Below are positions 26,886-53,005 of a DNA stretch of 63,937 nucleotides, in pieces (positions within the stretch are counted from its first letter, which is position 1; the number at the start of each line of letters is the position of its first letter). Source of the DNA: a virus. Its lineage: Duplodnaviria; Caudoviricetes. The notes under the pieces were generated by a model. That model was not told the DNA's origin, ran no database searches, and was given only the letters and a program-made list of their open reading frames with translations. The position numbers and the translations under genes are program-made. The stretch covers positions 1 through 63,937 of IMG/VR virus record IMGVR_UViG_3300009507_000019. The stretch is one strand, 5' to 3'.

Positions 26886-26886
26886 G

Positions 26887-26908: not shown

Positions 26909-26914
26909 CATCTC

Positions 26915-27196: not shown

Positions 27197-27393
27197 TCCT
27201 CCGTTGGGGTTGGGGTTTCGCCTTCACCTTGAAGTGCCTCAACCTTTTGGATCAATGAGATACACTGATCTCGAAGTTGACCAATAGTTGATAACTCTTC
27301 GCCTCTAAAGCCACCGCGACCGGCGACAGTATCTACAACCGCGACAGTACTGCGTGTCACACGATTGACTAGATCCATTACATCATTATCCAC
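27193..27393 (-). CDS. Conserved T4-like hypothetical protein downstream of gp45
   Basis: VAVVDTVAGRGGFRGEELSTIGQLRD. Confidence 0.7.
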   Translation of the reverse strand: MDNDVMDLVNRVTRSTVAVVDTVAGRGGFRGEELSTIGQLRDQCISLIQKVEALQGEGETPTPTEE

Positions 27394-27405
27394 AAGATTT
27401 TCCTC

Positions 27406-28080: not shown

Positions 28081-28108
28081 AACAATATTCCTCGATTAAT
28101 TTAAACAT

Positions 28109-28137
28109 AGTTTAACAAAAGTCTGCGTTGTTGTCAA
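28109..28137 (-). promoter_or_regulatory. Sigma70 promoter TTGACA-17-(TGT)TAAACT for gp45
   Basis: Correct spacing; overlaps the end of the upstream gene. Confidence 0.65.
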
Positions 28138-28735
28138 GCGGTACTTCAATGTCTTTTAAAAATATTTGAATACATTTCCTAAAACGTTTGGTCTGTATCT
28201 CTGTAGACCTATGTGATACGTTTCGTATTGCGACTGCTCTGTTGTAACTGGGGGTTACTCTCTGTACTTCTTGTTTTTCGTTCTTGTACAGAAAGTCCCC
28301 ACCCCACTCTATATCCCAGTGACGATTAAGGTAGATGGTTATCGCTCCGGAACGGATTCGTGCATCATGAGGATCGCCGTGTTTGAAATCACTATGCCAT
28401 TCAATCCTAGACCCACCAGTCCAGACAAAGAATTGCATAGCCTCTCGGGTTTCAGGAATCCAATGAGGATATATCTTTTGTATATCATTCACGATGTTCT
28501 GCCACAACTCTGGATTACTCTCCCATATCTTATGTACTAGACAAAGGTTTTCATAACGTTCTGACATGGGATTCATAAAGTGTTTAGGTTTGTCTTTGGC
28601 CCATGCAAAGTTAGTTGTCCACACATGATCTGTAGAGTTCAGTAAATGATCACAATATCGAGATGCCGCGTCTGCGACTCGCGGAGAAAGAAACGCGTCA
28701 TGGTTCTTTACGTAATAATCGATTTGTTCACTCAT
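28112..28735 (-). CDS. 2OG-Fe(II) oxygenase
   Basis: WHSD, TIYLNRHWDIEWGG, PSYNRAV, SH, RKCIQIF. Confidence 0.88.
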   Translation of the reverse strand: MSEQIDYYVKNHDAFLSPRVADAASRYCDHLLNSTDHVWTTNFAWAKDKPKHFMNPMSERYENLCLVHKIWESNPELWQNIVNDIQKIYPHWIPETREAMQFFVWTGGSRIEWHSDFKHGDPHDARIRSGAITIYLNRHWDIEWGGDFLYKNEKQEVQRVTPSYNRAVAIRNVSHRSTEIQTKRFRKCIQIFLKDIEVPLDNNADFC

Positions 28736-30437: not shown

Positions 30438-31495
30438 ACGAGTTCGAGCGTCTGCGCCTCTACCATGAGTTCACGCACCATCCCCTTGATGGTGTCTTTG
30501 TTTAACGGTGTATCTACCGCATTTATATAAGTATACAACAAATCTTCCGTACTGTCAACTGATATTTGATTGTCACTCACAGAACCACCAGTAAACTCTT
30601 CAAAGTTCTCTGCGATCTTGAGTTCGTGTATCTTACGAGAGTTGATCCTATCTACGAATGCATCGAACAACTTAGGATCAGACTTATTGACCACGATCAA
30701 CTTGACGAACTTATCGTCTAGGTGTCGTATGTCTGTAAGCATAGGATTCTTCTCTTGATCGTTGTAGTAGATCTTCTCGAACAATCTCTCGGTGTTGACT
30801 ACGGGGGTGACCTCACGAGTGTCTGTGTCTAGGATGTGGAAGTGCTTGGGGTCATGTGCATCACTCCAGAAGAACTCCATCTGAGAACCAAGGTAGTGTA
30901 TGTTACCACTCTGTGACTTGGTGTGGAAGTGTCCGGAGAGAACCAAATCAAAACGATTGAATGCAGATGCCCTCATACCATGAGTACAGGGAATACCCGC
31001 AGACATCTCGAACCCTTCTAACTCAAGGTGTGCACCAATCACATCTGCCTTACAACCCTGAATGAACTTCATACACTCATCATTGTTGGTCTCGTTGATC
31101 CAAGGTATCAGACCCATAGGCATACCATCATAGTCAACCACCATTGGTTTCTCGATGATACGTACCTCTTCCATGTAGTGACCTAACAGTTCTTTGAGTG
31201 CACTCAGGTCATTAGTATTCTTGTAGAACACGTCATGGTTGCCGGGAATGATATCCATGTGGATCTTGTACTCACGCAACTTCTCCAAAAAGATCTTCCG
31301 GTTATGTTCCAACGCACGGAAGTTGATGAACTTACGGTTGTCGTAGTAGTCACCAAGGTGTAGTATCTTTGTGATACCGTTCTCACGTAGGTACGGGAAG
31401 AACACATCACGATAGAAACGTTCTTGATAGTCCATCATCACGTCAGATGAGTTACGGATACCACAGTGAGTGTCATTCAGTATTGCAATCTTCAT
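30434..31495 (-). CDS. 47: Recombination endonuclease nuclease subunit (gp47, Mre11/SbcD-like)
   Basis: DTHCG, LGDYYD, PGNHD, SGHFH. Confidence 0.97.
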   Translation of the reverse strand: MKIAILNDTHCGIRNSSDVMMDYQERFYRDVFFPYLRENGITKILHLGDYYDNRKFINFRALEHNRKIFLEKLREYKIHMDIIPGNHDVFYKNTNDLSALKELLGHYMEEVRIIEKPMVVDYDGMPMGLIPWINETNNDECMKFIQGCKADVIGAHLELEGFEMSAGIPCTHGMRASAFNRFDLVLSGHFHTKSQSGNIHYLGSQMEFFWSDAHDPKHFHILDTDTREVTPVVNTERLFEKIYYNDQEKNPMLTDIRHLDDKFVKLIVVNKSDPKLFDAFVDRINSRKIHELKIAENFEEFTGGSVSDNQISVDSTEDLLYTYINAVDTPLNKDTIKGMVRELMVEAQTLELV

Positions 31496-31498
31496 TAA

Positions 31499-31714
31499 TT
31501 AGTTACTCGCGAGTTGTACAACTATTATGAATAGTAACATATTTGTTACAAACAATTCAAGCGCTAATATAGTATGATACCATACCCACCTTGTCTTGTA
31601 CGCATTTTCCATACTAATCTCTTCGGGATCAGGATCACTGTTGGGATTAGCGACTCTTTTCATAGTATCCCATATGCGTCGAGACTCTGCTCGAGCTTGG
31701 TCTAACGATTTCAT
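31499..31714 (-). CDS. Hypothetical protein with C-terminal TM
   Basis: 71-aa coupled ORF. Confidence 0.55.
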   Translation of the reverse strand: MKSLDQARAESRRIWDTMKRVANPNSDPDPEEISMENAYKTRWVWYHTILALELFVTNMLLFIIVVQLASN

Positions 31715-32307
31715 ACATCATCCTCTTCTCCAAGGAAATCTGACAGATCGGAATCGACACGTCTACGTCGACGTTTGCGTATCTCTTTCGCATATACCTT
31801 AATCTTTTGGTCAGTATCCTTTACTTCATCAATACGATCACGTAGACTGTCAACAAACATTTGTGTCTGACGTACCGCCTCTTCATTGTCGCCATCAAGG
31901 ATTAACGAAGATATATCACTCTCCGCAAGAAACTTCATCTTGATGTCTTGTTGTTTTTTCTCTTTCTGAATCCTACGCAGAAACGCATACCATGCAATCT
32001 GTGTGAAGTATGCAAATGCGTTGGGTGCCTTAGTTCGCGTTGCCTTTGTGATGTCGTAGTTGTCTATTGCCTTGAGACAGTTCTCCACTGCGTCCATCAC
32101 CATTTCTTCTCTATAGGTGTAACGCACGAAGTTTGCTCGGTGAGACAATCCCTCCGCGATCTTGAGAAAACATCGAGCAATATAGTCGGTCACGACAGGT
32201 CGGGGTTCGCCTTCAGCAGACTTTTCTGTTGCATCTTTAACGTAGTCGACAACCGCTAATGAGAACTCTGCGTTGTTTACGTAATGCGGTTTGTCTTTCG
32301 GTTTCAT
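31711..32307 (-). CDS. 55: Late-transcription sigma factor (gp55)
   Basis: HYVNNAEF, FLKIAEGLSHRANF, NAFAYFTQIAWYAFLRRIQKEKKQ. Confidence 0.97.
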   Translation of the reverse strand: MKPKDKPHYVNNAEFSLAVVDYVKDATEKSAEGEPRPVVTDYIARCFLKIAEGLSHRANFVRYTYREEMVMDAVENCLKAIDNYDITKATRTKAPNAFAYFTQIAWYAFLRRIQKEKKQQDIKMKFLAESDISSLILDGDNEEAVRQTQMFVDSLRDRIDEVKDTDQKIKVYAKEIRKRRRRRVDSDLSDFLGEEDDV

Positions 32308-32332
32308 AGTCATCTCCAATTTGATTTAATAC

Positions 32333-32361
32333 ACTATAACAAAACTACTACTGTTTGTCAA
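32333..32361 (-). promoter_or_regulatory. Sigma70 promoter TTGACA-17-(TGT)TATAGT for gp55
   Basis: Correct spacing. Confidence 0.7.
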
Positions 32362-32768
32362 TCCCTATCGACAACTCTTCGTCTCAAATCAGAAGTAGAA
32401 AATCTATGATCTCTTTTATTGAAGTATATCTCTATACCTCTGCTTGCACATATGGCACGTCCTGTAAATGTGCCTGACTTGTACTCTGATCCTATGATCC
32501 GGACATCGATCTGTAATGCGGATAGGATATCCTCTAGATCTTGTTCGGTGACGTAAGGTATGATCTCGTTGACGTACTGCACCGCATTTAACTGTGTGTA
32601 ACGTTCTACGACGGTTTGGATAGGTTGGTTTTTCTCCGGTCGATCTAGACTAGGATCTACCTGTAGTCCACATATAAGGTAGTCACATTGAGTCTTTGCC
32701 TCTCTCAACATGGCGATGTGACCTGCATGTAACAGATCGAATGCACTGCATGTAAATCCTATTTTCAT
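32358..32768 (-). CDS. Glycerol-3-phosphate cytidylyltransferase (TagD-like)
   Basis: FDLLHAGH, GLQVDPSLDR, RDHRFSTSDLR. Confidence 0.85.
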   Translation of the reverse strand: MKIGFTCSAFDLLHAGHIAMLREAKTQCDYLICGLQVDPSLDRPEKNQPIQTVVERYTQLNAVQYVNEIIPYVTEQDLEDILSALQIDVRIIGSEYKSGTFTGRAICASRGIEIYFNKRDHRFSTSDLRRRVVDRD

Positions 32769-32778
32769 AAAAAATCAC

Positions 32779-32807
32779 TTGACATATTGTAAAAGAAATG
32801 TTACCCT
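32779..32807 (+). promoter_or_regulatory. Plus-strand sigma70-like promoter TTGACA-17-(TGT)TACCCT, antisense to the uvsW operon
   Basis: Perfect -35, TGn extension, TAnnnT -10. Confidence 0.45.
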
Positions 32808-32841
32808 AAAGCTGTTCAGCGCCCCAGAGTGAATACTTCGA

Positions 32842-33303
32842 TTAGTGAAGTACTTTGTTTGGGTCTGGGAACTGCAAAACATTGTTATAATCTGAGTCCG
32901 TTATATGAGTGCTAACCGCTGTTAATTTCTCAAGTGCACTGGCCAAAGATCTTGCATCTTCTTCATTACGTTGTCTCAATCGCACGTTTCTCTGTTTACC
33001 CGTCTGGTGCATCTCATCAACTGCATCTATATATTCCTTAGAAAACATAGGAGAAGGTTTACTAGTACCGACAATATGATCAGTATTGACAACCATGATA
33101 TCGAGATAATTCTCTTGCATGGTCATCCAAGGACGTAGTCCATAGATCTGATCTTCATCTTCAGTCCAACTAATAGTTAACATCATTGCGTTGCGTACAA
33201 TCAGTTCGTTACTGTCAGCAGACGGCCACTCTATGACCTCACAGACCATCTCCTCACCGGATGCCATTCTTACTTGTAAAAAGTTCTTCTCTGAAAATAT
33301 CAT
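32842..33303 (-). CDS. Conserved T4-like protein downstream of uvsW (Sm-like fold)
   Basis: QVRMASGEEMVCEV...LRPWM; conserved synteny. Confidence 0.7.
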   Translation of the reverse strand: MIFSEKNFLQVRMASGEEMVCEVIEWPSADSNELIVRNAMMLTISWTEDEDQIYGLRPWMTMQENYLDIMVVNTDHIVGTSKPSPMFSKEYIDAVDEMHQTGKQRNVRLRQRNEEDARSLASALEKLTAVSTHITDSDYNNVLQFPDPNKVLH

Positions 33304-34775
33304 ATGGGCACCTGTGTAATCTTAAAAGGGAAACGTTCCCTACTATATATCTTAACTCTTTCAGCGCTGTGCAGAAGAGTAAAGTTCTTCTTAGACTTGA
33401 TATGTAGATCATCTGCAATGTCATACAACCTTGTAGTACTACCATCGTCTGATATTCTTAGTCCTCTTCCGATTGATTGTAAGACTCGAATCTGAGACTT
33501 GGACGGAGAAGCAAATACAATGTTATGAATATTTTTAATGTTAATACCAGTAGAGAACGTACCAAGAGAGGCCAGAATAATACTATTCTTTTGCTTATCG
33601 ACAATATTACGTATCTGTTCTCGGTCTGAGGTTTTGGTTTCTCCTGATACGAAAAAGAATCTCTGTCCATCTTTTAACTTGTCCTCAATTAGAGGCCGTA
33701 AAACCTTGCCGTGTTTGTCCACAAGGTTAAACAAAACAAGAGTGTTACCCTCCAGAGATGCTGAAAGGTTGGCGATAAAGTTATTTCGTTTCTCATATCC
33801 AACGATAAAGTCGATTTCATCTTGATATGTCCTTCCGTCTGTAAGTTGACAGAGTTCGCGTTTATATTTTAGTAGTATAATATCTATATCTAACTTAGCG
33901 AGGTGTTTATCCTCTTGCAACTTCGCGGTGGTTACCGACGTATATGTGGGGCCAAACAAACCTTCCAGTACTAGTTTGTGTACTGTGGTTCCGTCCAGTG
34001 TACCTGTGGTACCGAACCGATACTCTGCCTCGATAGACTTGTTCATAATTGACGACAGGGACTTAGACTTAAACCCATGTACCTCATCCCCCACGATACA
34101 ACCAAACTGTTGAAACCAAGGTGCACCTAGTTTGTAGATTGATTGCCATGTAGAGACAATGATTGGACAGTCTGTCTTCTTATCCTTACCAGAATAGATA
34201 CGGTGTACGTTCTTCTCTACGTCATACCCGTACTCATAGAAGTCCTTGTACATCTGTTCAACCAGAGATGTTGTAGGAACAATCAGTAACAACTTCTTGT
34301 TGTGTTGTGCGAGATACCACCGTGCGAGAATATAAATGATAAAAGACTTGCCAGATCCTGTAGGACTCAGTATAATGGCTCTCTTGTTCTCTATACCATG
34401 TACTATAGCATCATATTGATAATCACGTGGTTTGAATGGTAGATCTAGAGAATCAATGAACTCTTGGAATGCCATGTGAGGAACTTTGTTCTTATCGTAG
34501 GGATAACCATATGGCCCTTCTTCAACCTTGATACCATAACCACGTTCACCTGCAAACTTACGCAACGACTCATATAGACCCGCATTCAGTTCACCATTAG
34601 TACGGTTGAACAAACGAATCTTGCCGTCCCAGATTCTCTTCTTTACCGCAGGCATGAACTTAGCGCCAGGCACTTCAAAACAGAAGTGTTCAGAGATCTC
34701 GGATACTATGTGAGGTGCACACTCGACCATCTGCAACATCGCATAGTTTCTCATTTTAAGTTTGATTACTTCCAT
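33300..34775 (-). CDS. uvsW: RNA-DNA/DNA helicase UvsW
   Basis: PRDYQ, SPTGSGKS, GDEVH, GTTGT, LQSIGRGLR. Confidence 0.97.
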   Translation of the reverse strand: MEVIKLKMRNYAMLQMVECAPHIVSEISEHFCFEVPGAKFMPAVKKRIWDGKIRLFNRTNGELNAGLYESLRKFAGERGYGIKVEEGPYGYPYDKNKVPHMAFQEFIDSLDLPFKPRDYQYDAIVHGIENKRAIILSPTGSGKSFIIYILARWYLAQHNKKLLLIVPTTSLVEQMYKDFYEYGYDVEKNVHRIYSGKDKKTDCPIIVSTWQSIYKLGAPWFQQFGCIVGDEVHGFKSKSLSSIMNKSIEAEYRFGTTGTLDGTTVHKLVLEGLFGPTYTSVTTAKLQEDKHLAKLDIDIILLKYKRELCQLTDGRTYQDEIDFIVGYEKRNNFIANLSASLEGNTLVLFNLVDKHGKVLRPLIEDKLKDGQRFFFVSGETKTSDREQIRNIVDKQKNSIILASLGTFSTGINIKNIHNIVFASPSKSQIRVLQSIGRGLRISDDGSTTRLYDIADDLHIKSKKNFTLLHSAERVKIYSRERFPFKITQVPI

Positions 34776-34782
34776 TATCTAA

Positions 34783-35229
34783 TTAGAACCCTGCTTCAAA
34801 CTGTTTCCATCGTATGATATTACCAATTGTTTGGTGTCTCCACTTCAACGTTTCTAGTATTTCTTTCAAGGTATCTATACACGTAGTTAAGTACTGGATT
34901 TTCTTCTCACTGTTCACAAGGTCTTCGTCAGTCTCGATGAACTGTTCTTTGAACTTGTTAGTGGTTGCACTACGACCTTCGTACGGATCATAATCCCATC
35001 CAAAACGATCGATTTCGTCCTTGGACATCTTACCTTCGTAGTATAGATACTTCCACTTCATGAGTTCTTTCTGTTTGAACTCGGCGTCTTTCAATTTTAG
35101 TTTGTAGGTTGCGTGTAGTTCCAAGTACTTACCGTGGTTCTTGGACGCTTCTACGGAGGAGGCATCTAGTGCCATCATTTCAATCTGAGAGTCTTTCTTC
35201 CACTCAGTTAATATAGCTTCAAGGTTCAT
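34783..35229 (-). CDS. uvsY: Recombination mediator UvsY
   Basis: EWKKDSQI, HGKYL, YYEGK, IGNIIRWKQFEAG. Confidence 0.9.
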   Translation of the reverse strand: MNLEAILTEWKKDSQIEMMALDASSVEASKNHGKYLELHATYKLKLKDAEFKQKELMKWKYLYYEGKMSKDEIDRFGWDYDPYEGRSATTNKFKEQFIETDEDLVNSEKKIQYLTTCIDTLKEILETLKWRHQTIGNIIRWKQFEAGF

Positions 35230-35270
35230 TATTTATCCTATAGGAGTAGTCTTAATACCCACCTAGTATA

Positions 35271-35792
35271 TCATTTAAACACAAAATAGTCAAATCTAAA
35301 TGTCGCCTGAAACGACAAAAACTGCTCCTGTGAAGTTGATGCAAGGTTGATCATACCTACACTTGTGGGGAACCCATTTATATAGGTAAAAGTTCTGTTC
35401 ACATTATTGTGACTAGAGAGGATGGCGACAGTGATATCATTGTATGACGAACCCTGATATCCTTTCTCCGGATTAGATTCTACGGATGCGGACGGAAGTT
35501 TGTGTGGATTAGAGGTTGCGGACATCATCCAGTTGAAGAGTTCTCGATATGAGTTCATGTCCTCATCAAGTAACACTTCCATAGTCAATGTACCAAACTC
35601 AGCGGCGTCTCCCACAAAGGGTACACTGTTAACCCTAGAGAAACCCAACTCAGCGGATGGTAAGTTTACATCGGGGTGAGATATTGTTTGTGCATAGAAC
35701 TGTAGGTTAGGGAAGTCTCTCCTACTGATAACTATTTTGAACCCTGACGGTTGCAAGTAGTTTGTTCCACAATCAAATGTGTTGGTCGCCAT
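35271..35792 (-). CDS. 3: Tail completion / tube terminator (gp3)
   Basis: NYLQPSGFK, LLDEDMNSYRELFNWM, ATFRFDYF; synteny. Confidence 0.88.
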   Translation of the reverse strand: MATNTFDCGTNYLQPSGFKIVISRRDFPNLQFYAQTISHPDVNLPSAELGFSRVNSVPFVGDAAEFGTLTMEVLLDEDMNSYRELFNWMMSATSNPHKLPSASVESNPEKGYQGSSYNDITVAILSSHNNVNRTFTYINGFPTSVGMINLASTSQEQFLSFQATFRFDYFVFK

Positions 35793-35819
35793 GTCTTATA
35801 CCTTTGGTTTGTCTTACTG

Positions 35820-35827
35820 TATTTATA
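35820..35827 (-). promoter_or_regulatory. Late promoter TATAAATA for gp3-uvsY-uvsW
   Basis: Exact match. Confidence 0.8.
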
Positions 35828-35839
35828 CCTGTTTAGGGG

Positions 35840-35868
35840 TTGACTTTGCAGGCTACATAATGTATAAT
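35840..35868 (+). promoter_or_regulatory. Strong sigma70 promoter TTGACT-17-TATAAT driving the inverted cassette
   Basis: -35 35840-35845, -10 35863-35868; SD GAGGT before 35893. Confidence 0.85.
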
Positions 35869-35892
35869 GTATTACATTGAGATGAGGTATAG

Positions 35893-37023
35893 ATGATACT
35901 AACACACACAGACGCGTTATACGCTGCAAATGCATTCGAGGAGTTCTTCGGTAGTATCGAAAGAATCGACGAATACATGCGTATGGTAAAGATGGAGAGG
36001 ATGGCAGAGTTTCCTCCCGCATTGCCTGGCATGGGCCCTGAAGAAGATCTCTTCAACAACTTCGATATCCATCCGTCTGAGATGGAGTTTACTATCATTG
36101 ACACTGCGTCATACAAGTTCATGAACTACATGGAGATCGTCACCTCTGCCCCTGTAGAGAAGTCAATCCCCGGCAAGACCATGAAGTGGATAATCAAAGA
36201 GAAGAACACCGACATGGTTGCGGGTATGATTCGACTCGGTTCTCCTACCATTAATAGTAAACCACGCAACGACTGGTTGGGTAATCCCCTCGACAGTCTA
36301 AACCCTAAGATCATGGAGAGGTTCAACAACTCTGCAATCATGGGGTTCAACATCGTACCTACACAACCATTTGGATTTAACTATCTGGGTGGTAAGTTAC
36401 TGGCTGCAATCTGTTGCAGTCACTTTACACGTGATGCACTCAACAAGAAGTATGATTCTAACTTCTGTATGTTTGAGACCACATCACTATATGGTTCAAC
36501 AAAGTCTGCCTCGCAGTATGATGGTATGAAACCATTTCTGCGATTCAACGGTTTGACAGACTCAAACTTCTTGCCACTAATCAATGACAACACTTTCCGC
36601 AGACTGAGTGATTGGTTCATTGATAAGAACGGTGGTGAACCCTTGGTTCCTGTGGATGCATCCTCTCGCAAACTCAAGACACAGACCAAGATGGCATCGA
36701 TCATCAAAGCCTCTCTCAAAGTTCATGATGATGTTGCCTATAAGAAGTTCTGTCAAACCTACGATAATGCAAAGGATCTGACTGAACGAAAACGTTCTTT
36801 CGTATCCACGTATGGTTATGATAATGTACCTCAGTATCTAAACCTCGAAACAGATACATTGATCAAGAAAGAAAACTACGACAGGTTCTCTCTTGAGAAT
36901 GTTACTACATGGTGGAAGAAGAACGCCACCAAACGTTACGACAAACTAAAATCTGAAGGTCGGTTGAGACGTACCGTAGAAACTTGGAACGTCAACGCAG
37001 ATGATATCGATATAATTAGGTGA
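35893..37023 (+). CDS. DUF4338 (DruA-like) protein, probable Mom-like GNAT fold
   Basis: IPGK..KWII.E, GMIRLGSP, PTQPFGFNYLGGKLLA, FETTSLYG, SQYDG..PFLRFNGLT. Confidence 0.7.
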   Translation: MILTHTDALYAANAFEEFFGSIERIDEYMRMVKMERMAEFPPALPGMGPEEDLFNNFDIHPSEMEFTIIDTASYKFMNYMEIVTSAPVEKSIPGKTMKWIIKEKNTDMVAGMIRLGSPTINSKPRNDWLGNPLDSLNPKIMERFNNSAIMGFNIVPTQPFGFNYLGGKLLAAICCSHFTRDALNKKYDSNFCMFETTSLYGSTKSASQYDGMKPFLRFNGLTDSNFLPLINDNTFRRLSDWFIDKNGGEPLVPVDASSRKLKTQTKMASIIKASLKVHDDVAYKKFCQTYDNAKDLTERKRSFVSTYGYDNVPQYLNLETDTLIKKENYDRFSLENVTTWWKKNATKRYDKLKSEGRLRRTVETWNVNADDIDIIR

Positions 37024-37029
37024 TATATT

Positions 37030-37413
37030 ATGATTACAGATTTCTGTGTTATATGCGGAACAAAAGATAATCTTCATAACCATCATATTGTTTGTAAGAA
37101 AAGTGAACTAAAACCAATATCTGGTGATTACGATCATTATACAAACCTCCTGACTCTTTGTGGAGAACATCATGGATGGATTCATGGTGTTAAACCTAAC
37201 AGGTTTAATAACTGGTCTGAACTAAAAAAACTAGGAATAGAGAGTGCAAAAAGAAGAGGAGTCAAGTTTGGCGCACCAAGAAAAATAGACGATAAAAAGG
37301 TTCATGACTTATGGTTATCGGGAAGGAGTGCTATAGAAATTGCTGAAGAGTTAGGTGTCGCTCGCGCAAGTGTGTATAGGTATTTGTCTTTATTCAAAAA
37401 ACAAGGATTTTAA
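37030..37413 (+). CDS. HNH endonuclease fused to a Hin/resolvase-type arm and HTH
   Basis: CVICG..NLHNHH...NLLTLCGEHHGWIH; AKRRGVKFGAPRK; SAIEIAEELGVARASVYRYL. Confidence 0.8.
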   Translation: MITDFCVICGTKDNLHNHHIVCKKSELKPISGDYDHYTNLLTLCGEHHGWIHGVKPNRFNNWSELKKLGIESAKRRGVKFGAPRKIDDKKVHDLWLSGRSAIEIAEELGVARASVYRYLSLFKKQGF

Positions 37414-37415
37414 AA

Positions 37416-38081
37416 ATGGCACAGTCGGATAGGTTAAGAGAGATACAGAGAAACTCGGGGGGTGGTAAGACCACCTACGCTGAGGGTGAGAAGACCGAGA
37501 CTAAGGTTGCGGATGCAGTCCAACATGTTATGAAAACATTGAAGAAGAAGTATCCGGATCTAGAGTTTGATCACATGAAGAGACATCCCAAGCGTATGTT
37601 CTCCGAATCTATTGGTGCGACAGACTGGATGCCTTCCAATGAAAAATCTTTTGTGAATCCAGACGGTGGTACCATATGGGTCAAAAAGGTCTACAATGAT
37701 GGAGCTACATGGTACCCTATCCTCACCTCAGAAGCAAAGAAACAAGGTACTAATGACAGACTGATTAAAGAGGGTATGAAGAGACAGGCACAGGGCAATG
37801 CGATTGAACGTGCGTACAAGAACATCGAAGAGTTTAGATGTCTGTATGAGAGATACAATTGGTTCCCATACTTCATTTTTTGTGAGGGGTGTGACTTTGA
37901 CAAAGGATCTTCTATCCTTGACCGTATGGATGCAATGACACGTTACCGACCTAGGAATACTACCTATCTCTTCGAACGACACCAACTGGTGTCCCTGTAC
38001 ATCCGCCCAGAAGGATTCAGGCCCGAGTTTATATATAACACCATGCTGGATGCAGCCGAAAAAATACTAACCCAAATATAA
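37416..38081 (+). CDS. EcoRI-family type II restriction endonuclease
   Basis: QSDRL, NPDGG, EAKKQG, GNAIERAYKN and FPYFIFCEG match EcoRI QSNRL, PDGG, EAKHQG, GNAIERSHKN and FPYVLFLEG. Confidence 0.88.
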   Translation: MAQSDRLREIQRNSGGGKTTYAEGEKTETKVADAVQHVMKTLKKKYPDLEFDHMKRHPKRMFSESIGATDWMPSNEKSFVNPDGGTIWVKKVYNDGATWYPILTSEAKKQGTNDRLIKEGMKRQAQGNAIERAYKNIEEFRCLYERYNWFPYFIFCEGCDFDKGSSILDRMDAMTRYRPRNTTYLFERHQLVSLYIRPEGFRPEFIYNTMLDAAEKILTQI

Positions 38082-38090
38082 GGAAAACCA

Positions 38091-38750
38091 TTGAAAGTAA
38101 AATTGGTAAGTCACTCACAAGCACCAGACTTTAACGAGTCTGCATTAGATCTAGTGGCATATTGTGCACGTGTATCTAACCCGTCTAATCAGAACAACAA
38201 AGAGACGAACGAGAAACTGGTAAAGTATCTCATGAAACATAAACACTGGTCTCCTCTAGAGATGGTTAGTGTCTGTCTGGAAGTAGAAACGACACGAGAT
38301 ATCGCACGTCAGTTGTTGCGCCATCGTAGTTTTAGTTTCCAAGAGTTCAGTCAACGTTATGCGGATCCGTTAAAAGACTTAGAGATGGTACCTCGCGAAG
38401 CACGATTTCAAGATCCAAAGAACCGACAGAATAGTATACCTATTGATCAAGATGACGAATCTCAAAGAAGGATCAATGAAGATTTTCGGATGAAACAGAT
38501 GAAACTTATTCATGAGTCCAAACAGGTTTACAACTGGGCAATCGATAATGGTATTGCAAAGGAACAGGCACGTGCTGTTCTACCAGAGGGTAATACTGTG
38601 TCTAGGTTATATGTGAATGGAACGTTACGGTCGTGGATACACTACATTGAGTTACGTAGTGCGAACGGCACACAGTTAGAACACATAGACCTCGCAATCG
38701 AAGTTGGACGTGTGATCGCTAAAATCTTCCCTTTAACCCCACAGGATTGA
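38091..38750 (+). CDS. thyX: Flavin-dependent thymidylate synthase ThyX
   Basis: HWSPLE, RQLLRHRSFSFQEFSQRY, EQARAVLP, TQLEH; TTG start with SD AAGGA. Confidence 0.96.
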   Translation: MKVKLVSHSQAPDFNESALDLVAYCARVSNPSNQNNKETNEKLVKYLMKHKHWSPLEMVSVCLEVETTRDIARQLLRHRSFSFQEFSQRYADPLKDLEMVPREARFQDPKNRQNSIPIDQDDESQRRINEDFRMKQMKLIHESKQVYNWAIDNGIAKEQARAVLPEGNTVSRLYVNGTLRSWIHYIELRSANGTQLEHIDLAIEVGRVIAKIFPLTPQD

Positions 38751-38754
38751 TAAG

Positions 38755-38829
38755 ATGGATCTCCTTGCGGTGGTACTTATTCTTGTTTGTATGATGATCT
38801 TATACGAGATTCATGACAGAAACGAATAG
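38755..38829 (+). CDS. Putative 24-aa membrane peptide MDLLAVVLILVCMMILYEIHDRNE
   Basis: Below the ORF-track cutoff; SD AGGA, directly after thyX. Confidence 0.4.
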   Translation: MDLLAVVLILVCMMILYEIHDRNE

Positions 38830-38851
38830 TGCCATCCTTGGCGATCTTACT

Positions 38852-39058
38852 CTAGTCCTCTTCTGGTGAAGTTGCATCTGTGCCAGTCTTGTCTGCAACA
38901 TCTTTAATAAGATTTGATGTTACATCCAATACACCAGCAGTTACACCAAAGACATCGGAACCGACACCTTTAATAACTCCACCAGTACCATCGATAGTTG
39001 CATCGACAGTTGAACAAGCAGACAGAACAAATGCGAATGCAATTGCAATAAAACGCAT
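38852..39058 (-). CDS. Small lipoprotein (entericidin-like)
   Basis: Lipobox LSAC, then STVDATIDGTGGVIKGVGSDV; SD AGGAGAG. Confidence 0.75.
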   Translation of the reverse strand: MRFIAIAFAFVLSACSTVDATIDGTGGVIKGVGSDVFGVTAGVLDVTSNLIKDVADKTGTDATSPEED

Positions 39059-39160
39059 GGTACTCTCCTGTTTCTAGATTACTGGATAACCAGACACAAC
39101 GGTAATAGATACCGTCTTTTACTACGTTGTTCAGTTCGTGAACACAATTATTTATCTATT

Positions 39161-39328
39161 CTACCAACCTGATTTAATTCTCGTATCAAAGTGATATTGT
39201 TTGCATTCCCGTACGGTCTTTGCAACACCTTCTTCTACTTCTTTCTTACACATCTTATTCAACTCAATAGTGTTATTAGTCGCACTAAGTGTACCAAAGA
39301 CGACAATCGCCCAAAAAACTATAGTCAT
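39161..39328 (-). CDS. 55-aa hypothetical secreted/membrane protein
   Basis: MTIVFWAIVVFGTLSATNN...KSGW; SD AGGAG. Below the track cutoff except as an extended alternative frame. Confidence 0.55.
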   Translation of the reverse strand: MTIVFWAIVVFGTLSATNNTIELNKMCKKEVEEGVAKTVRECKQYHFDTRIKSGW

Positions 39329-39352
39329 GTTCTACTCCTGATTTACACAAAT

Positions 39353-39378
39353 AAAAAAAGGGACTCCGAAGAGTCCCC
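39353..39378 (-). terminator. Rho-independent terminator after gp23
   Basis: GGGACTC-TTCG-GAGTCCC followed by T7. Confidence 0.92.
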
Positions 39379-39420
39379 TTAAAATCGCCCAGTAAACTGG
39401 ATCTAATTTTTATACCTTTC

Positions 39421-40782
39421 TTATGTGAGGATGTTGTCCACACGGAAGATTCGGTAGTACTGGTTAGTACGTACAGCAGCCAGACCGTCAGATCCGTCAA
39501 CGTATGGGTTTGAAGCCATTCCGTAACGAGTCTTGAATCCGATGCGTGGCTGGAAGTCGTCCTCACCAACCGCACGAACCATCTGAAGAGGTACGTATGG
39601 GCAGTAGAACACACCAGCGTCATATGGGTTAGTACCCTTATAACCTACAGTTACGTAGTCAGCAGTGGCATATGGATCGATGTATACACGAGTACGTCCG
39701 TTCAGTACACCAGCAAAGGTGTTACCAGTGTCATCAACCTGAAGGTTGGTAGACAATGAAGGAGTGTAATCAAGCATACCAGCAGCAACAAGAGCAGTAG
39801 CAACATCTGAAGAACAGATTACTACGTTACCCTTACCACGACGAGTTTCTTTCGCGATCACGTTACACTCACGTTCGATCTGAACAAGCAGACCCTTGAA
39901 CTTCTCTACTGACCAACGACCATCAGCATCACTTGACAAGTCAAAGATACCTTTAGTAGCAACGTTAGCCTGACGAGCACCAATCTTAGCCTGTGAGTTA
40001 ATAGTACGGATAACTTCACGGTTGATTTCAGAAAGGATCTCTGTAGACAGAATGTTCGCCAACTCAGTTTCAGCGTCAAGACCGTGGATTGCCTTCAAGT
40101 CTTGTGCCAATTCTAAGGTGTACTCTGCCTTCAGTGCACGTGACTTAGCAGTTACAGTGGACTTCTCGATTGTGAAACCCATTTCTGCGAATGCTTCGCC
40201 AGTGTTACCTAGAGCTTCTGCTTCAGCAGTGCTGTACAGATCGCCTAGAGCAGGAACGTAAGAACCACCAGAATCAACAAGAGTGTTGTCGCCATCTGTG
40301 TCAGATACGCTTTCAAGACCAGTAGAACCACCGTTTGCAGTAGTTGCTGAGTCTCCAGAGAAACCAACAGCTGCTTCGTTGAACAGTGCTTCGTCTCCAC
40401 TTGATACGCCAGCTTTAGTAGTCTTGTATCGCGACTTCATTGCGAAGATAAGACCAGTAGGGCCAGACATAGGTTGAACACCACAGATGTCGTATGCCAT
40501 CAAGTTAGGCATTGCACGACGTACGAGTGCGATCAATACTGGGTTCCAGTTGGATGCTGCACCAGTACCGCCATCAGCAGTAGATACACCATTACCAGCA
40601 GCGTTGCCAGCAGTTTCGATTAACTGACCGTTCATTGCAGCTTCCTCACGGAAAGCGTGCTCTTGGTTCTCAAGAACGGCAGCAGTTACGGCACGGCGAT
40701 GAGAATCATCGATCTTTCCCGCGCTCTCTTCGTTAAGAATGGGTGACCACTTCTCAACTAATTTATCATAGGATACTTGCAT
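39421..40782 (-). CDS. 23: Major capsid protein (gp23)
   Basis: LVRRAMPNLMAYDICGVQPMSGPTGLIFAM, KSRALKAEYTLELAQDLKAIHGLDAE, FYCPYVPL. Confidence 0.99.
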   Translation of the reverse strand: MQVSYDKLVEKWSPILNEESAGKIDDSHRRAVTAAVLENQEHAFREEAAMNGQLIETAGNAAGNGVSTADGGTGAASNWNPVLIALVRRAMPNLMAYDICGVQPMSGPTGLIFAMKSRYKTTKAGVSSGDEALFNEAAVGFSGDSATTANGGSTGLESVSDTDGDNTLVDSGGSYVPALGDLYSTAEAEALGNTGEAFAEMGFTIEKSTVTAKSRALKAEYTLELAQDLKAIHGLDAETELANILSTEILSEINREVIRTINSQAKIGARQANVATKGIFDLSSDADGRWSVEKFKGLLVQIERECNVIAKETRRGKGNVVICSSDVATALVAAGMLDYTPSLSTNLQVDDTGNTFAGVLNGRTRVYIDPYATADYVTVGYKGTNPYDAGVFYCPYVPLQMVRAVGEDDFQPRIGFKTRYGMASNPYVDGSDGLAAVRTNQYYRIFRVDNILT

Positions 40783-40797
40783 TAGTATACTCCCTTA

Positions 40798-41835
40798 TTA
40801 CTTATTTGTGTTTTTGATTGCGTTCAAGTACTGATTCATCACAGAATTAACTTCCTGTGGTTCAGCAGTCCAGTCTTCGGTTACTTCTTCAGCAGAGTTA
40901 GTCGCGGGTGCGTCCTTCGTAAAGTACGACTCCTTGACAGTCTTGACTTTCTGTTGAAAAGACTCTTCGTCTTCAAAGTCAAGTGCTTCTACCAATGAAG
41001 CGAGTTTTTCTACCTGAGTGTCAGCGAGATCACCTGACGCTTCACGAATGATCGCAGCGCGTTGGAATGATTCGATTTTCTCAGACATACTAAGAACTTC
41101 AGATACACGTGCGTTAAGAGACTCTTCGAGTTCCTCAACTTGATCTGCTAGTTCATCAACTAAGTCGACCTTGGACTCAGGAACTGTAACATAAGACTCT
41201 ACGAACAAGTCTTTCAACTTATTCATGAAACCTTCTGCGACTTCAGTGCGAAGTCCTTGCTCTACAGCAAGTTTGTTCTCATCCATCCAATTTTCAACTA
41301 CGTAGTTCAGGTAAGAATCAATCTTCTCTACGAGGTCAGAACGAGTTACATTCAGTTCCTCTTCAAGACGTGATTGATAATCATCTTCTAAGCGTTCGAT
41401 TTCCTCGGACAACTTAGACTTAATTGCAGTCTCAAAAATTATGGCAGTTTTCGATTTGAACTCATCTGATAAAGTGGCTTCTGATTCTACTAAAGCGTCG
41501 AGTTCGTCAGTATAGTTAAACTCAGGCAGTTCTACTGCATCTGCGTCTACGTCTACTTCCAGACCTTCCATTTTAGTCGCCATAGCTGCAAGGTGCATCT
41601 TAGACATACCTTCCATCTTTTTGTACATGGCGTTGATCATTGCTGCCTTTGTCTTGGGCGCGCCGTTAGGCTCGTCCTTATTTGCGGTATCACCTTTACG
41701 CTTAGGTGCGGGTTTAGTCGCATCCCCAGCTTTATCAGTGGCCGCAATTGACTGCTCTTCATCTCCTACCGGCATTTTCTGAGCACTTGCTTCCTCGATT
41801 TCTGGAAGCTCGATGTTTTGGTCTACATCAGACAT
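40798..41835 (-). CDS. 22: Prohead core scaffold protein (gp22)
   Basis: LSDEFK..IFETA, IDSYLNYVVENWM; acidic coiled coil. Confidence 0.93.
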   Translation of the reverse strand: MSDVDQNIELPEIEEASAQKMPVGDEEQSIAATDKAGDATKPAPKRKGDTANKDEPNGAPKTKAAMINAMYKKMEGMSKMHLAAMATKMEGLEVDVDADAVELPEFNYTDELDALVESEATLSDEFKSKTAIIFETAIKSKLSEEIERLEDDYQSRLEEELNVTRSDLVEKIDSYLNYVVENWMDENKLAVEQGLRTEVAEGFMNKLKDLFVESYVTVPESKVDLVDELADQVEELEESLNARVSEVLSMSEKIESFQRAAIIREASGDLADTQVEKLASLVEALDFEDEESFQQKVKTVKESYFTKDAPATNSAEEVTEDWTAEPQEVNSVMNQYLNAIKNTNK

Positions 41836-41847
41836 AACATTTTACTC

Positions 41848-42507
41848 CTAATAGTTAGATTTTAACAACGAGAGGAAACGCTTGTACTCTCGAACCTGCT
41901 TCTCGTAGAGATGCTTTGTCGGAGTGGTTAGTATTTCAGTCTCCATATTTTCAATGACTTGAGGTTCTATAACACCATTGTTCCATACCCAATCAACACC
42001 TTCCATGATACCATTTACAAAGGCACCAGGCGCTGAAGGATCTTGGACAATATCGACGGTATTAAGAATGAAGTCGTCACGAACATACATCGTGCCGTTC
42101 TTCGACTCAAGACTACCCATGCCACGAGTTGACACACCTAGTTGAACACCACCTTCAAGAAGACCTTTAACAATCTTACCCATTGGAGTATCCAATATTT
42201 GTGCCTTTCCTACCACATCCTTTCCCTCGAACTTGAGGTCTGTGATGAGGTGTGAAACTTTGTCTAAGTTAACGGTTGGCCCTTCAGGGTGGTTTAGTTC
42301 CCCTACCGCACGTTTCTTAGATACTTGTTCATCAACATAACGACCTACTGCCCTTTCCATAATTGCTTTAGGGTAGATACGTCCGTTACGATTCTTTTGG
42401 TCTGCTTGTGCAAACACACCTTCGATGACATAATTCTTGTCACCGTTTTCTTTTTTCTCAACGATACACTGGATATCGTTTTCTTGATATTCTGCGATTA
42501 GTTTCAT
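41848..42507 (-). CDS. 21: Prohead protease (gp21)
   Basis: NRNGRIYP, GELNHP, GVSTRGMGS, DIVQDPSAP. Confidence 0.97.
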   Translation of the reverse strand: MKLIAEYQENDIQCIVEKKENGDKNYVIEGVFAQADQKNRNGRIYPKAIMERAVGRYVDEQVSKKRAVGELNHPEGPTVNLDKVSHLITDLKFEGKDVVGKAQILDTPMGKIVKGLLEGGVQLGVSTRGMGSLESKNGTMYVRDDFILNTVDIVQDPSAPGAFVNGIMEGVDWVWNNGVIEPQVIENMETEILTTPTKHLYEKQVREYKRFLSLLKSNY

Positions 42508-42716
42508 TAGAACTCCTTTGCGAAAGCTAAACCAGCTTTCTCCGCTTCTTTTTGTGTCCGGAAGGTATCTAACTTGTCACCATCTATGTATGTAGTGAAC
42601 TTACCTTTCTCTTTGTGCACCATAACAGTGTGACGGTTTACCTTCTTGTCGAACACATGTTCGCCAGGCGGCATACCTTTAGATCTTTTCTCTCGGATAG
42701 ATTGAAACGTTTTCAT
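42507..42716 (-). CDS. 68: Prohead core protein (gp68-like)
   Basis: Position between gp67 and gp21; own late promoter at 42742-42749. Confidence 0.55.
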   Translation of the reverse strand: MKTFQSIREKRSKGMPPGEHVFDKKVNRHTVMVHKEKGKFTTYIDGDKLDTFRTQKEAEKAGLAFAKEF

Positions 42717-42741
42717 AAGAAACCTTTAGTCTTGTACAGAA

Positions 42742-42749
42742 TATTTATA
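42742..42749 (-). promoter_or_regulatory. Late promoter TATAAATA
   Basis: Exact match. Confidence 0.8.
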
Positions 42750-42760
42750 CATATTCGGAT

Positions 42761-43087
42761 CTAGACTTCGTCCTCATCTGACTCTTCCTCATCCGACTCT
42801 TCTTCATAGTCTTCTTCGGGTTCGGACTCATCTTCTACGTCTTCTACGTCCGGTTCGATGTCCGATTCAACTTCTTCGTCGTCACCGTCGCCATAAAGGT
42901 TAGATGCAATCTTGACCTTTGCTTGATCCATTGCATCTTGAAGTCGATCATTGACCATGTCTTTAAACTGCGACTCTGCGCCGACAAAGTTCTGATCTTC
43001 TACGGACTTTAAAAAGTCTGCAATCGGGTTTGGTGCATCAATAGGATCTGCTTCAACTTCAGCTACAACTACGTCATCATCTGGCAT
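42761..43087 (-). CDS. 67: Prohead core protein (gp67-like)
   Basis: Highly acidic, immediately downstream of the portal gene. Confidence 0.65.
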   Translation of the reverse strand: MPDDDVVVAEVEADPIDAPNPIADFLKSVEDQNFVGAESQFKDMVNDRLQDAMDQAKVKIASNLYGDGDDEEVESDIEPDVEDVEDESEPEEDYEEESDEEESDEDEV

Positions 43088-43089
43088 TA

Positions 43090-44715
43090 TTAAGACTCCT
43101 CATCTTTTTTATCATCTTGATCTACCGGTGCCTTTTTAGGTTCCGGTTTCTTAGGTTCCACAGGTGGTTTACCCACAGGTGGTTTTTCTTCTTTCTTATC
43201 ATCCGGATCGTCAATCTCTCCAGACGAAATCTCGCCGTTGATCTCTTTCTCCATCGTCTCGATGTCTTCATCAGAGAAACGCATGACATTACGCATCATC
43301 CATTCTTTAGATATGTATTCACCCACGAACCCTACCATCTCGTTCATGAGTCCTGCACGTTCTCTGTAGATCTCCATTTCCTTCAGTTCGGTGAAGTGAT
43401 TATCACGAACGAAGTCAATGTATATATTGTCCTTCCACTCTTCCCAATCTTGTTCTGTGATGATAGACTTGAGAACTAGTTGTTTTCTCAGAATACCAAG
43501 GAACAGATTCGCGAACCTTCTGCGTAGTTTGTCAATAAACTTCTGGAACTTCACTTCGTCTCTGGAGATCTCAGTAGACCTACCTAAAGAGAACTGTGAT
43601 TCTTGTTCCAAACGATTCACTGGGACATTCAGAGAACGGTATAGTCTCTTCTGGAAATAAATGATATCATCTATCTGTCCCAGATTATCGCCGCCTGGCA
43701 GTGTTGATATCTCTGTACCACGTCCACCTTCTTTACGTGGTAACCAGAAGTCTTCAAGCATACTCATATGCTTACGGTCATCTTTGAGTTGACCAGTACT
43801 CGCATCATAGACTAACTTGTTACGATACTTCGCCATGATGTCTTTCATGTATTCGTTTGCCTTACCACGTGGCATGTTACCCACATCAATATAGAATATA
43901 CGACGCTCGGGTGCACGTGCAAGACGATAGATCACAAGACTGTCTTCCATCATACGCAACTGGTTGATGGGTTTTAGTGCCTTATGTAGGTGTGACAGGA
44001 TCTTCTTTCTAGACTCATCCAGTACACCAGATGTCACATAACTGACAGCGTCCATAGACAGTTTGACAGATGAGTTGGTCTGGCCGGGTTTCTCATCGTA
44101 GACGTAAAACTCTTCTACCCTATCAACTATCTTAACATTGGTCTTTTGATCTTTCTTATACTTAATTTCTTTTACTTTGCGAACCCGTGCAGCATCGATG
44201 TGACGGATCTCTTGTATACCTGCTTTTAGGTTAGAGTCGTTAACGAGTAGGTGGTGTACACATCGTCCGTCAACGTACCACGATCTGAAAATGTCGTGAC
44301 CTAGATCGTTGAAGTTCAACATACTAATTACTTTGTCAAACTCCAATCGAATGGTGTCTTTGATTTTATCGTTTGCTTCGATATCATCTAGTGAAATCTT
44401 TACTGAGGATTCCAACTCAGAGGCAGTAATTGCTTCATTGACAATCTCTTCGATCGCCATATCAACTTCAGGGTGTTGTGAAACACCACGGTAGCGCATA
44501 ATTAACTGGTGGTTATCTTTTGCTTGATCACCGTCCATGTTAATGTACTGTCCATAGTAACCCGCCGCGGAGGTCACATAACCTGCACCGTCGGGATCCG
44601 TTGGTGTTACTGGGGACTGAAGTTTCTGTTGACCAGAGGGTACCGAGGAACCCTTACCTGCTCTCTTGATTTCAAATCCAAATAACTTTAATACACTGCC
44701 GCTTTCTTCTGCCAT
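43090..44715 (-). CDS. 20: Portal protein (gp20)
   Basis: LFGFEI, WYVDGR, NQLRMMEDSLVIYRLARAPERRIFYIDVGN, EDFWLPRKEGGRGTEI; likely start MAEESG. Confidence 0.98.
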   Translation of the reverse strand: MAEESGSVLKLFGFEIKRAGKGSSVPSGQQKLQSPVTPTDPDGAGYVTSAAGYYGQYINMDGDQAKDNHQLIMRYRGVSQHPEVDMAIEEIVNEAITASELESSVKISLDDIEANDKIKDTIRLEFDKVISMLNFNDLGHDIFRSWYVDGRCVHHLLVNDSNLKAGIQEIRHIDAARVRKVKEIKYKKDQKTNVKIVDRVEEFYVYDEKPGQTNSSVKLSMDAVSYVTSGVLDESRKKILSHLHKALKPINQLRMMEDSLVIYRLARAPERRIFYIDVGNMPRGKANEYMKDIMAKYRNKLVYDASTGQLKDDRKHMSMLEDFWLPRKEGGRGTEISTLPGGDNLGQIDDIIYFQKRLYRSLNVPVNRLEQESQFSLGRSTEISRDEVKFQKFIDKLRRRFANLFLGILRKQLVLKSIITEQDWEEWKDNIYIDFVRDNHFTELKEMEIYRERAGLMNEMVGFVGEYISKEWMMRNVMRFSDEDIETMEKEINGEISSGEIDDPDDKKEEKPPVGKPPVEPKKPEPKKAPVDQDDKKDEES

Positions 44716-44774
44716 ACGTACTCTCTTATAAAATAATAGGGAGCCCTTTGGACTCCCCACTATTTAGTCTTGCA

Positions 44775-45302
44775 TTAAGATGTTGTATTTGATTCCCAAT
44801 ACTGGTAAGCAAATGTTACATCAAATGTTTCGATCTCACCTTTTGTATCATAACTCAAGTTAATTGCACCGACAGTCTCGGGGAATGCACCACGAATGTC
44901 AACACGTTTGATGACAGACTCATCACGATCGAGTTGTTCAACAAAAAGATCAGTCTGGTAGTCAACTGGGTTCACAAGACCGGAATTGCTCTTGTGTCCG
45001 TTGATACCATTAGACCATCTTTCCATTGCGTCACGAACGCCAAAGTTTGTGTCATTGATTATGGTTACTGTCCAAGGTTCAAAAGTTCTCTCAGATGCCA
45101 TCTTCAGTTCACGACCTCGGAAGTTAACAACAAAGTTACCTACCTGAGATTGTGGAAGTTGTGCGGTTTTACATAGAAATGAAGTCTCTTCCGCATCACC
45201 ACCTGCATATGCAGGGAAGTTGATAGTGCATCGGAAAAGGTTCGCTCTAGCGCCTCCGCCACGGAGTTTTGACTTGAAGTCATCTACGCCTAAAATTGCC
45301 AT
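44775..45302 (-). CDS. 19: Tail tube protein (gp19)
   Basis: GGGARANLF, FRGRELK, WTVTIIND, VTFAYQYW. Confidence 0.96.
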   Translation of the reverse strand: MAILGVDDFKSKLRGGGARANLFRCTINFPAYAGGDAEETSFLCKTAQLPQSQVGNFVVNFRGRELKMASERTFEPWTVTIINDTNFGVRDAMERWSNGINGHKSNSGLVNPVDYQTDLFVEQLDRDESVIKRVDIRGAFPETVGAINLSYDTKGEIETFDVTFAYQYWESNTTS

Positions 45303-45314
45303 TTCTTATTCTCC

Positions 45315-47045: not shown

Positions 47046-47123
47046 AATCGTATCCTTTTATTTTCGTTGAGTTATGATAAGTAACATAATACGGAGAATT
47101 AATTCAATACCATTATTTAGTCT

Positions 47124-53002: not shown

Positions 53003-53005
53003 GAC

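Follow-up and report, generated by a model that had tools for sequence, protein, structure and literature searches.

An EcoRI-family nuclease without a detectable methylase partner in a cyanophage contig free of RAATTY

We describe an orphan type II restriction nuclease of the EcoRI family, encoded by a 221-amino-acid (aa) open reading frame (ORF) at 37416..38081 on the + strand of a T4-like cyanomyovirus contig, and the complete absence from that contig of RAATTY, the word we infer to be its target. The contig is the full IMG/VR virus record IMGVR_UViG_3300009507_000019 (linear, 63,937 bp; 1..63937, hereafter the window), which at a CheckV completeness of 35% covers about one third of its genome. 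It has the gene complement of such a virus, with replication and recombination genes (family B polymerase, primase, DnaB-type helicase, clamp and clamp loader; UvsX and UvsY) alongside those for the tail tube and the major head protein, and Kyanoviridae phages are 75–79% identical to its head-gene region at the DNA level. Not one of the 146 AATT tetranucleotides in the window lies within a RAATTY, no cognate methyltransferase was found there, and the word is likewise missing from two unrelated viral lineages that carry the nuclease while persisting in syntenic relatives that do not. We consider it likely that the phage carries an ApoI-like, methylase-free nuclease, tolerated through complete avoidance of its site and used against the DNA of the host or of rival phages.

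The assignment to the EcoRI family is supported at several levels. The protein matches Pfam EcoRI (PF02963) with an expectation value (E) of 2e-18 and 66.8 bits (cut-off 22), the PADLOC model REase_II with E 4e-18, and EcoRI chains in the Protein Data Bank (PDB; 1ckq, E 1.6e-13) over an alignment covering residues 3–173. P82-D83 and E106-A-K108 fall in register with the PDGG and AEAK of the EcoRI catalytic site, and G127-N-A-I-E-R132 repeats, letter for letter, the GNAIER motif with which EcoRI reads the AATT core, bearing out an earlier note on this DNA (the original prediction, made from the letters alone) that had seen intact PD...EAK and GNAIER motifs in an EcoRI-family ORF. An AlphaFold2 (AF2) model built with 38 homologues as input (pLDDT 85.2, pTM 0.80) retrieved through Foldseek, as its only PDB matches at E <= 0.001, five EcoRI chains (best E 2.6e-14; TMq 0.71–0.73 (0.72), 233 columns, 26% identity). 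A symmetric homodimer, the form that a palindromic site calls for, was predicted with a score of 0.70, against 0.27 for the best control, with contact agreement of at least 96% across runs and a partner pLDDT of at least 79. Among proteins of solved structure, 20 of 30 one-chain pairs and 1 of 23 single chains attain the same mark; the result may be read as a likeness to the solved EcoRI dimers, short of proof. Of 238 candidates from a protein search, 110 were homologues, all with PF02963 and mainly from marine metagenomes; in an alignment of 38 homologues, 23 positions do not vary, among them the PD, E-K and GNA-ER residues.

All 146 AATT in the window belong to the 12 YAATTN/NAATTR hexamer classes, with GAATTC, AAATTT, GAATTT and AAATTC each at zero. 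Base composition predicts 103.9 RAATTY, and Markov models of orders 1–4 predict 95.5, 61.0, 30.9 and 15.2, the order 4 model being the most conservative in that it conditions on both flanking pentamers; a null in which synonymous codons are permuted inside 88 crude gene calls gives 104.8 ± 7.6, with a minimum of 81 in 300 shuffles. The claim of more than 100 AATT and no RAATTY, reached by a manual pass, thus survives a full count, and the comparison with Markov and codon-shuffled expectation sets zero against 15.2–104.8. Counter-selection among AATT hexamers is restricted to RAATTY: YAATTR stands at 50/80 (observed/expected) and RAATTR/YAATTY at 96/177, ratios that resemble those of controls. 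Every Glu-Phe or Lys-Phe codon pair (129/129) is GAG-TTY or AAG-TTY, as had been noticed among the pairs first checked, against a background in which GAA supplies 733 of 1329 Glu codons (55%) and AAA 556 of 1225 Lys codons (45%). The 39 RAATTY that two relatives hold in stretches aligning with the window have no counterpart there, 16 of them through synonymous differences and 23 with a difference that alters the amino acid. At the 22% share of AATT that RAATTY takes in nuclease-less syntenic relatives, the probability of finding none among 146 is ~1e-16.

RAATTY is not the only word missing from the window, a complication that the original prediction had not noticed, and the relatives of the phage allow the causes to be separated. 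GGWCC (0/83, observed/expected), GACGTC (0/19), CTTAAG (0/14), CTGCAG (0/9–19), TGCGCA (0) and GCATGC (0) are also absent, and CTCGAG (1/13), CCATGG (2/11), AGCT (44/153) and CCWGG (25/69) are scarce; the window showed no nuclease that would match any of them. Lineage A comprises 13 viral contigs, L001–L013, with a nuclease 70–76% identical to that of the window, in the same slot and between flanking proteins 91–100% identical; RAATTY is zero in all 13 (5–28 expected in each), and the whole contigs G008 and G009 stand at 0/50 and 0/40. As controls we used three syntenic contigs of ~70% nucleotide (nt) identity, G001 (67 kb), G003 (60 kb) and G002 (22 kb), in none of which the nuclease gene was found. 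They too lack GGWCC (0/82, 0/73 and 0/21, respectively), with GACGTC 0, CTTAAG 0–1, TGCGCA 0 and GCATGC 0, a shared set of avoidances that looks like the footprint of host restriction–modification (R-M) systems; yet they hold 69, 45 and 23 RAATTY, in line with their flank-independent expectations of 66, 43 and 23. Among 59 loci of at least 5 kb, gathered by similarity to the major head protein, none has the nuclease and none is RAATTY-free (share of AATT: minimum 0.115, median 0.246); two of them belong to records that are 83–84% complete, with no nuclease anywhere in either.

Between the window and the sister-contig alleles the nuclease gene has a ratio of nonsynonymous to synonymous change (dN/dS) of 0.12–0.15 at a dS of 1.2–1.7, whereas most flanking genes have a dS of 0.13–0.3 in the same comparison. 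Because of this disparity, the slot appears to carry three old, diverged alleles that have been exchanged by recombination at one locus, each maintained by purifying selection in a genome that is free of RAATTY.

The same association recurs in lineage B, eight contigs of 35% G+C with an intact nuclease 36% identical to that of the window (PDGG, EVK, GNGIER), located between lysozyme/Hsp20 and MazG genes and with no methylase found nearby. RAATTY is zero in all eight loci (13–43 expected), and the whole contig G006 (40 kb) has none among 214 AATT. The other avoidances of G006 differ from those of the window: GATC is avoided (8/109), CTGCAG is not (8/6), and CTTAAG stands at 4/15. Syntenic relatives of lineage B whose slot holds no recognisable gene show the same avoidance of GATC and GGWCC while carrying RAATTY at 19/15, 35/37, 52/62, 40/44, 31/28 and 41/47 (share 0.31–0.35). 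Equal avoidance in relatives without the gene, named in advance as the outcome that would speak against the prediction, was therefore not seen in either of two unrelated lineages; because the syntenic controls in both keep RAATTY while sharing the other avoidances, we set aside host pressure as the sole cause. In a maximum-likelihood tree of 80 nucleases, for which the bacterial rows were thinned to one in three, lineages A and B form separate clades (support 100/99 and 100/100) split by a 99/94 branch, with the A nuclease placed among phage nucleases and the B nuclease among bacterial R-M nucleases.

The original prediction had also held that no DNA methyltransferase lies near the nuclease or elsewhere in the window. 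Within the window this stands, since six Pfam families (PF13651, PF01555, PF02086, PF00145, PF02384 and PF05063) gave no six-frame match; for the genome beyond it, of which about one third is covered, the claim does not carry over. The neighbours of the nuclease are an HNH-HTH gene and ThyX, not the cognate methyltransferase that normally adjoins the nuclease in a type II R-M system. Cellular and most viral relatives, by contrast, appear to travel with an adenine methyltransferase. Among bacterial and archaeal homologue loci, 73 of 80 adjoin an ORF of at least 150 aa (mostly ~370–430 aa) with a [DNS]PP[YFW] (NPPY-type) motif, and testing of three of these identified each as an adenine methylase of the D12 class; the bacterial loci hold RAATTY in 1005/4186 AATT. 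Of 37 other viral loci, 33 have a methyltransferase, 31 as an adjacent ORF with an NPPY-type motif and 2 as a fused nuclease-methyltransferase, three of the remaining four being too short to judge and one, L039, a clear exception. These methyltransferase-bearing viral contigs retain RAATTY (518/2695 AATT pooled; 139 sites in the 137-kb contig G010), whereas in lineages A and B together 0/22 loci have an NPPY-type neighbour and RAATTY makes up 0/892 AATT. Three phages with both genes (L022–L024) are depleted for RAATTY specifically, with 3–5 among 43–99 AATT and YAATTR at expectation. RAATTY specificity and immunity through avoidance, as first proposed, are well supported by these comparisons, in which the two lineages and the contrast with methyltransferase-bearing relatives point the same way.

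The viral partner is a small protein. In the group of phage contigs whose nuclease is 38–45% identical to that of the window (L016–L043), an ORF of 193–217 aa with FYETP, EPACGxG and NPPF motifs starts within 45 bp downstream of the nuclease (for example L023:10674-11312 and L030:10660-11250). These mini-methyltransferases score 19–25 bits against Pfam N6_Mtase (cut-off 20.4) and are 68–94% identical to each other, more conserved than their nucleases; an AF2 model was poor, at pLDDT 49.8, and the best match in a PDB profile search, at only E 0.03, was an adenine DNA methyltransferase. Their motifs and marginal Pfam scores make them putative gamma-class N6-adenine methyltransferases. In L033 and L034 nuclease and mini-methyltransferase are fused in one 417-aa ORF, with NPPF at residue 311. 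Homologues of the mini-methyltransferase, D12 and MT-A70 partners were found neither in the window (best E 0.92) nor in lineage A or B sequence. Separately, the 13-kb viral contig L043 carries two inverted nuclease copies (3646-4329 and 9575-8892), the first adjoining a D12-class methylase.

One ORF of the window was considered as a cognate methyltransferase and rejected. The 193-aa product of 17972..18553 (- strand) reaches 25.7 bits against Methyltransf_24, below the cut-off of 26.3, and has no PHROG or NCBIfam match; its Atlas neighbours are viral class I SAM (S-adenosylmethionine) / O-methyltransferase-type clusters. It occupies the slot between the polymerase and primase genes, where the related phage C48C1 has an annotated DNA methyltransferase to which it is unrelated, and it is present in the lineage A contig G009 (95%) and was not found in G001/G003.

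In the mechanism that we propose, the product of 37416..38081 would be an active homodimeric type IIP endonuclease cutting RAATTY (ApoI specificity). The sequence comparisons argue strongly that the nuclease cuts this word and that the phage is immune because it is free of it; selection would have removed every RAATTY from the phage DNA, mostly through synonymous codon choice. Transcription would probably start from a host-type promoter and take in a four-gene + strand island that lies between late structural genes, so that the nuclease might be made early and cut unmethylated, site-bearing DNA, be it the host chromosome (feeding nucleotide salvage), that of co-infecting phages, or both; the hints for this timing and use are weak. 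The neighbouring ThyX would fit nucleotide salvage, but it is not beside the nuclease in three lineage A members (L011–L013). A methylase would have been lost once the sites were gone, because a co-expressed methylase would protect the DNA of the victim too, and phages with both genes and partly depleted RAATTY look like intermediates. A wider scenario, plausible to us though not quite probable, is that marine phages have repeatedly made the R-M module into a methylase-free weapon, first depleting and then erasing the word before dropping the methyltransferase, with host or rival DNA shredded from the first minutes of infection. If so, the vocabulary of the genome would be all that separates self from non-self, and T4-like cyanophages, whose DNA is unmodified, would gain the mechanism of host-DNA degradation that they have been missing.

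Several observations weigh against the reading of a nuclease made safe by site loss. Host pressure alone can clear a site from this phage completely, because other palindromes are absent with no matching nuclease in the window; the relatives without the gene might meet hosts that have no RAATTY system; and the specificity is read solely from the word that the genome avoids. A short lineage-B-like contig, L246, has two RAATTY, its nuclease slot not being covered. The orphan homologue of L039 (3647-4321) coexists with RAATTY (15/84 AATT), on a giant-virus-like contig of 6.5 kb and 28% G+C that also carries a ligase/polX-type gene and an Asn-rich ORF; in this nuclease the family-invariant D169 is Ser. 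A distant cognate methyltransferase could lie in the unseen 65% of the genome. Ahead of the island, the sigma-70-type promoter-like site TTGACT-17-TATAAT (35840..35868, + strand; 11/12) is a consensus match in a region where sites of this kind are no commoner than expected (8 against 11.5); it lies 25 bp upstream of the first island gene, is the best sigma-70-like site of the region, and is consistent with early transcription by the host polymerase, no more. Two metatranscriptome contigs fall within the nuclease ORF (37517-37667 with 0 differences from the window, 37418-37621 with 2) and are thin, at 151–204 nt and depth 2–3 from two runs of one study, with DNA carry-over possible; coverage of the island by the RNA libraries is patchy, which makes its gaps uninformative.

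The order of events could be reversed: a host ApoI-type R-M system would have purged RAATTY first, and the site-free phage would then have gained a nuclease of the same specificity without its methylase, as a passenger or late acquisition. We think this rather unlikely. Gaining an active nuclease while sites remain would be lethal, which speaks for a prior purge, as does the full avoidance of other palindromes that have no matching nuclease in the window. The tree cuts both ways, in that the lineage B nuclease nests among bacterial R-M nucleases and the lineage A nuclease among viral nuclease and mini-methyltransferase pairs rather than host enzymes. A Synechococcus-labelled contig from a metagenome-assembled genome (L153) does carry a 37% identical nuclease with a D12 methyltransferase, but the RAATTY-specific depletion in L022–L024 fits a purge by the phage's own enzyme followed by methyltransferase loss, and RAATTY persists in sister phages that avoid the same other words.

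Nor need the nuclease be an orphan, if a cognate RAATTY methyltransferase sat in the two thirds of the genome beyond the window and the two enzymes formed an ordinary R-M system. The CheckV completeness of 35% leaves room for this, separated R-M genes are described in prokaryotes (Ershova 2012, PMC3488263), and C48C1 shows an annotated DNA methyltransferase between polymerase and primase genes in a related phage; in the window, however, that slot holds the O-methyltransferase-like class I SAM protein, and homologues of the partner methyltransferases were found neither in the window nor in lineage A or B sequence. We regard a split system as improbable, since methylated sites would put no selection on total removal, and phages with a linked methyltransferase keep RAATTY, G010 among them. 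Least credible of all, to our minds, is coincidence, with an avoidance purely host-driven and an ORF that is inactive, of another specificity, or a DNA-binding protein. It gains something from the fact that enzyme activity is deduced from sequence, from the orphan homologue of L039 that coexists with RAATTY, and from the frequency with which solitary restriction genes are fragments, 99/272 according to the same survey (Ershova 2012, PMC3488263). Against it stand a full-length ORF with invariant catalytic and recognition positions and a dN/dS of 0.12–0.15 over a dS above 1, an orphan state that goes with zero RAATTY in two clades, each with syntenic negative controls, and an avoided word that contains the very AATT core read by the EcoRI GNAIER motif.

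Restriction enzymes are host defences, survivable only with a methylase, and a virus-borne nuclease with no methylase, apparently made safe by a rewritten viral genome, would be a different solution to the self/non-self problem. Sequence, motifs and fold all place the phage nuclease in the EcoRI family; lacking a methylase within the window, it falls outside the definition of an R-M system. With EcoRI itself (GAATTC; PDB 1ERI/1CKQ) it shares the Pfam family, the whole-chain fold, the motifs and the predicted symmetric dimer, but it is shorter (221 aa against 277), its outer base pair would be degenerate (R:Y), the MAAGNAIER of EcoRI reads QAQGNAIER, and it is phage-borne with no EcoRI-type methylase (PF13651, no match in the window). 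ApoI, XapI and AcsI are bacterial RAATTY isoschizomers, taken as parts of R-M systems; the likeness to them is by site alone, the word missing from the phage genome being their recognition site, and by inference the phage nuclease works like ApoI without its partner. Phage T4 makes endonucleases II and IV, from which its hydroxymethylcytosine DNA is protected by base modification, and in the marker exclusion of T-even homing endonucleases self-protection comes from one variant target site. As in those systems, a phage nuclease would destroy host or rival-phage DNA while its own DNA is no substrate; the difference is that self-protection here would come from genome-wide loss of a 6-bp word.

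Closer in function are viral systems that keep the methylase. Chlorovirus restriction enzymes degrade host DNA and recycle its nucleotides, and the marseillevirus R-M system degrades the DNA of co-infecting viruses that lack it, as described in Jeudy et al. (Jeudy et al. 2020, PMC7253447); both groups protect their own DNA with a cognate methyltransferase, whereas here none was found and the sites are gone. The phage nuclease and mini-methyltransferase pairs have a homologous nuclease (38–45% identity) on marine phage contigs, several with ThyX nearby, and differ in that the methyltransferase follows the nuclease and RAATTY is retained. Solitary restriction genes have been surveyed before, with 12 solitary restriction endonucleases counted, though not explained, in 831 phage genomes (Oliveira et al. 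2014, PMC4176335) and 272 solitary restriction genes analysed in prokaryotes (Ershova et al. 2012, PMC3488263); the main texts of these two papers draw no link between a solitary phage enzyme and a missing site (the word 'avoidance' is not used in Ershova), and a term search of Rusinov 2018 (PMC6286503) gave no hit for any of the phrases sought on virus-encoded nucleases. Searches of the full-text literature, most subscription journals and the supplements being outside that scope, turned up no earlier case in which an orphan restriction enzyme of a phage goes with the disappearance of its site. If our reading is right, it would explain a class of 'solitary' phage restriction genes and offer a candidate, open to experiment, for the means by which cyanomyoviruses whose DNA is unmodified break down host DNA or keep out competitors; host R-M systems would then cease to be the only explanation for maps of site avoidance in phages. 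The family also offers enzymology compact EcoRI-fold enzymes and candidate adenine methyltransferases of ~200 aa.

Coding in the window is almost wholly on the - strand, the exception being the four-gene + strand island (35893..38750) between the tail tube and major head genes, in the order phrog_19197/DruA-like gene, HNH + HTH gene, EcoRI-like gene and ThyX. The first gene (35893..37023, +) encodes a phrog_19197 protein (PHROG E 4e-160) with a weak match (E 8.7e-8 in Pfam, 2e-5 in PADLOC) to DruA (DUF4338), a component of Druantia defence; it is kept in relatives with and without the nuclease, the copies in G001–G003 being 66–86% identical at the protein level. Directly upstream of the nuclease, 37030..37413 (+) encodes a 127-aa HNH endonuclease with a resolvase-type helix-turn-helix (HTH) domain (Pfam HTH_7/HTH_28; PHROG HNH endonuclease). 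This gene was found in the window and in L003–L009 and is missing from L001, L002 and L010–L013; with 96.8% nt identity and a dN/dS of 1.85, it looks like a mobile, selfish homing-type gene that the nuclease does not need. The last gene (38091..38750, +) encodes ThyX, a flavin-dependent thymidylate synthase (Pfam Thy1, E 2.1e-42), and thyX is located elsewhere in G001/G003.

Little-changed copies of the island (at least 91% of its words) occur in 14 DNA runs spread over 5 studies, one of which may be the source of the record, and a 6.8-kb contig from an independent study spans 34700-38912 with 7 differences from the window. In an independent marine DNA run, X2, a contig of depth 123 joins 35579 to 38883 and leaves out the 3.3-kb island, a hint at most of an abundant island-less relative, as the short side of the junction is only 30 letters.

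The isolated Synechococcus phage S-CREM2 (L014, 7054-7623) carries a 27% identical nuclease annotated 'EcoRI', three genes from a 'DNA adenine methylase'. We considered it as a phage that avoids AATT and dropped it, the case being unclear: AATT stands at 17/85 in 27.6 kb under an order 1 model but at 17/28 under order 2, and at 87/113 in a second, 50-kb piece. Among related cyanophage contigs more generally, AGCT is absent in some (L071, L072, L101, L110, L119) and normal in others, and GATC is absent in L119, L124, L126, L133 and L044–L050 and normal in others, a pattern suggesting that restriction pressures differ from strain to strain within this phage group.

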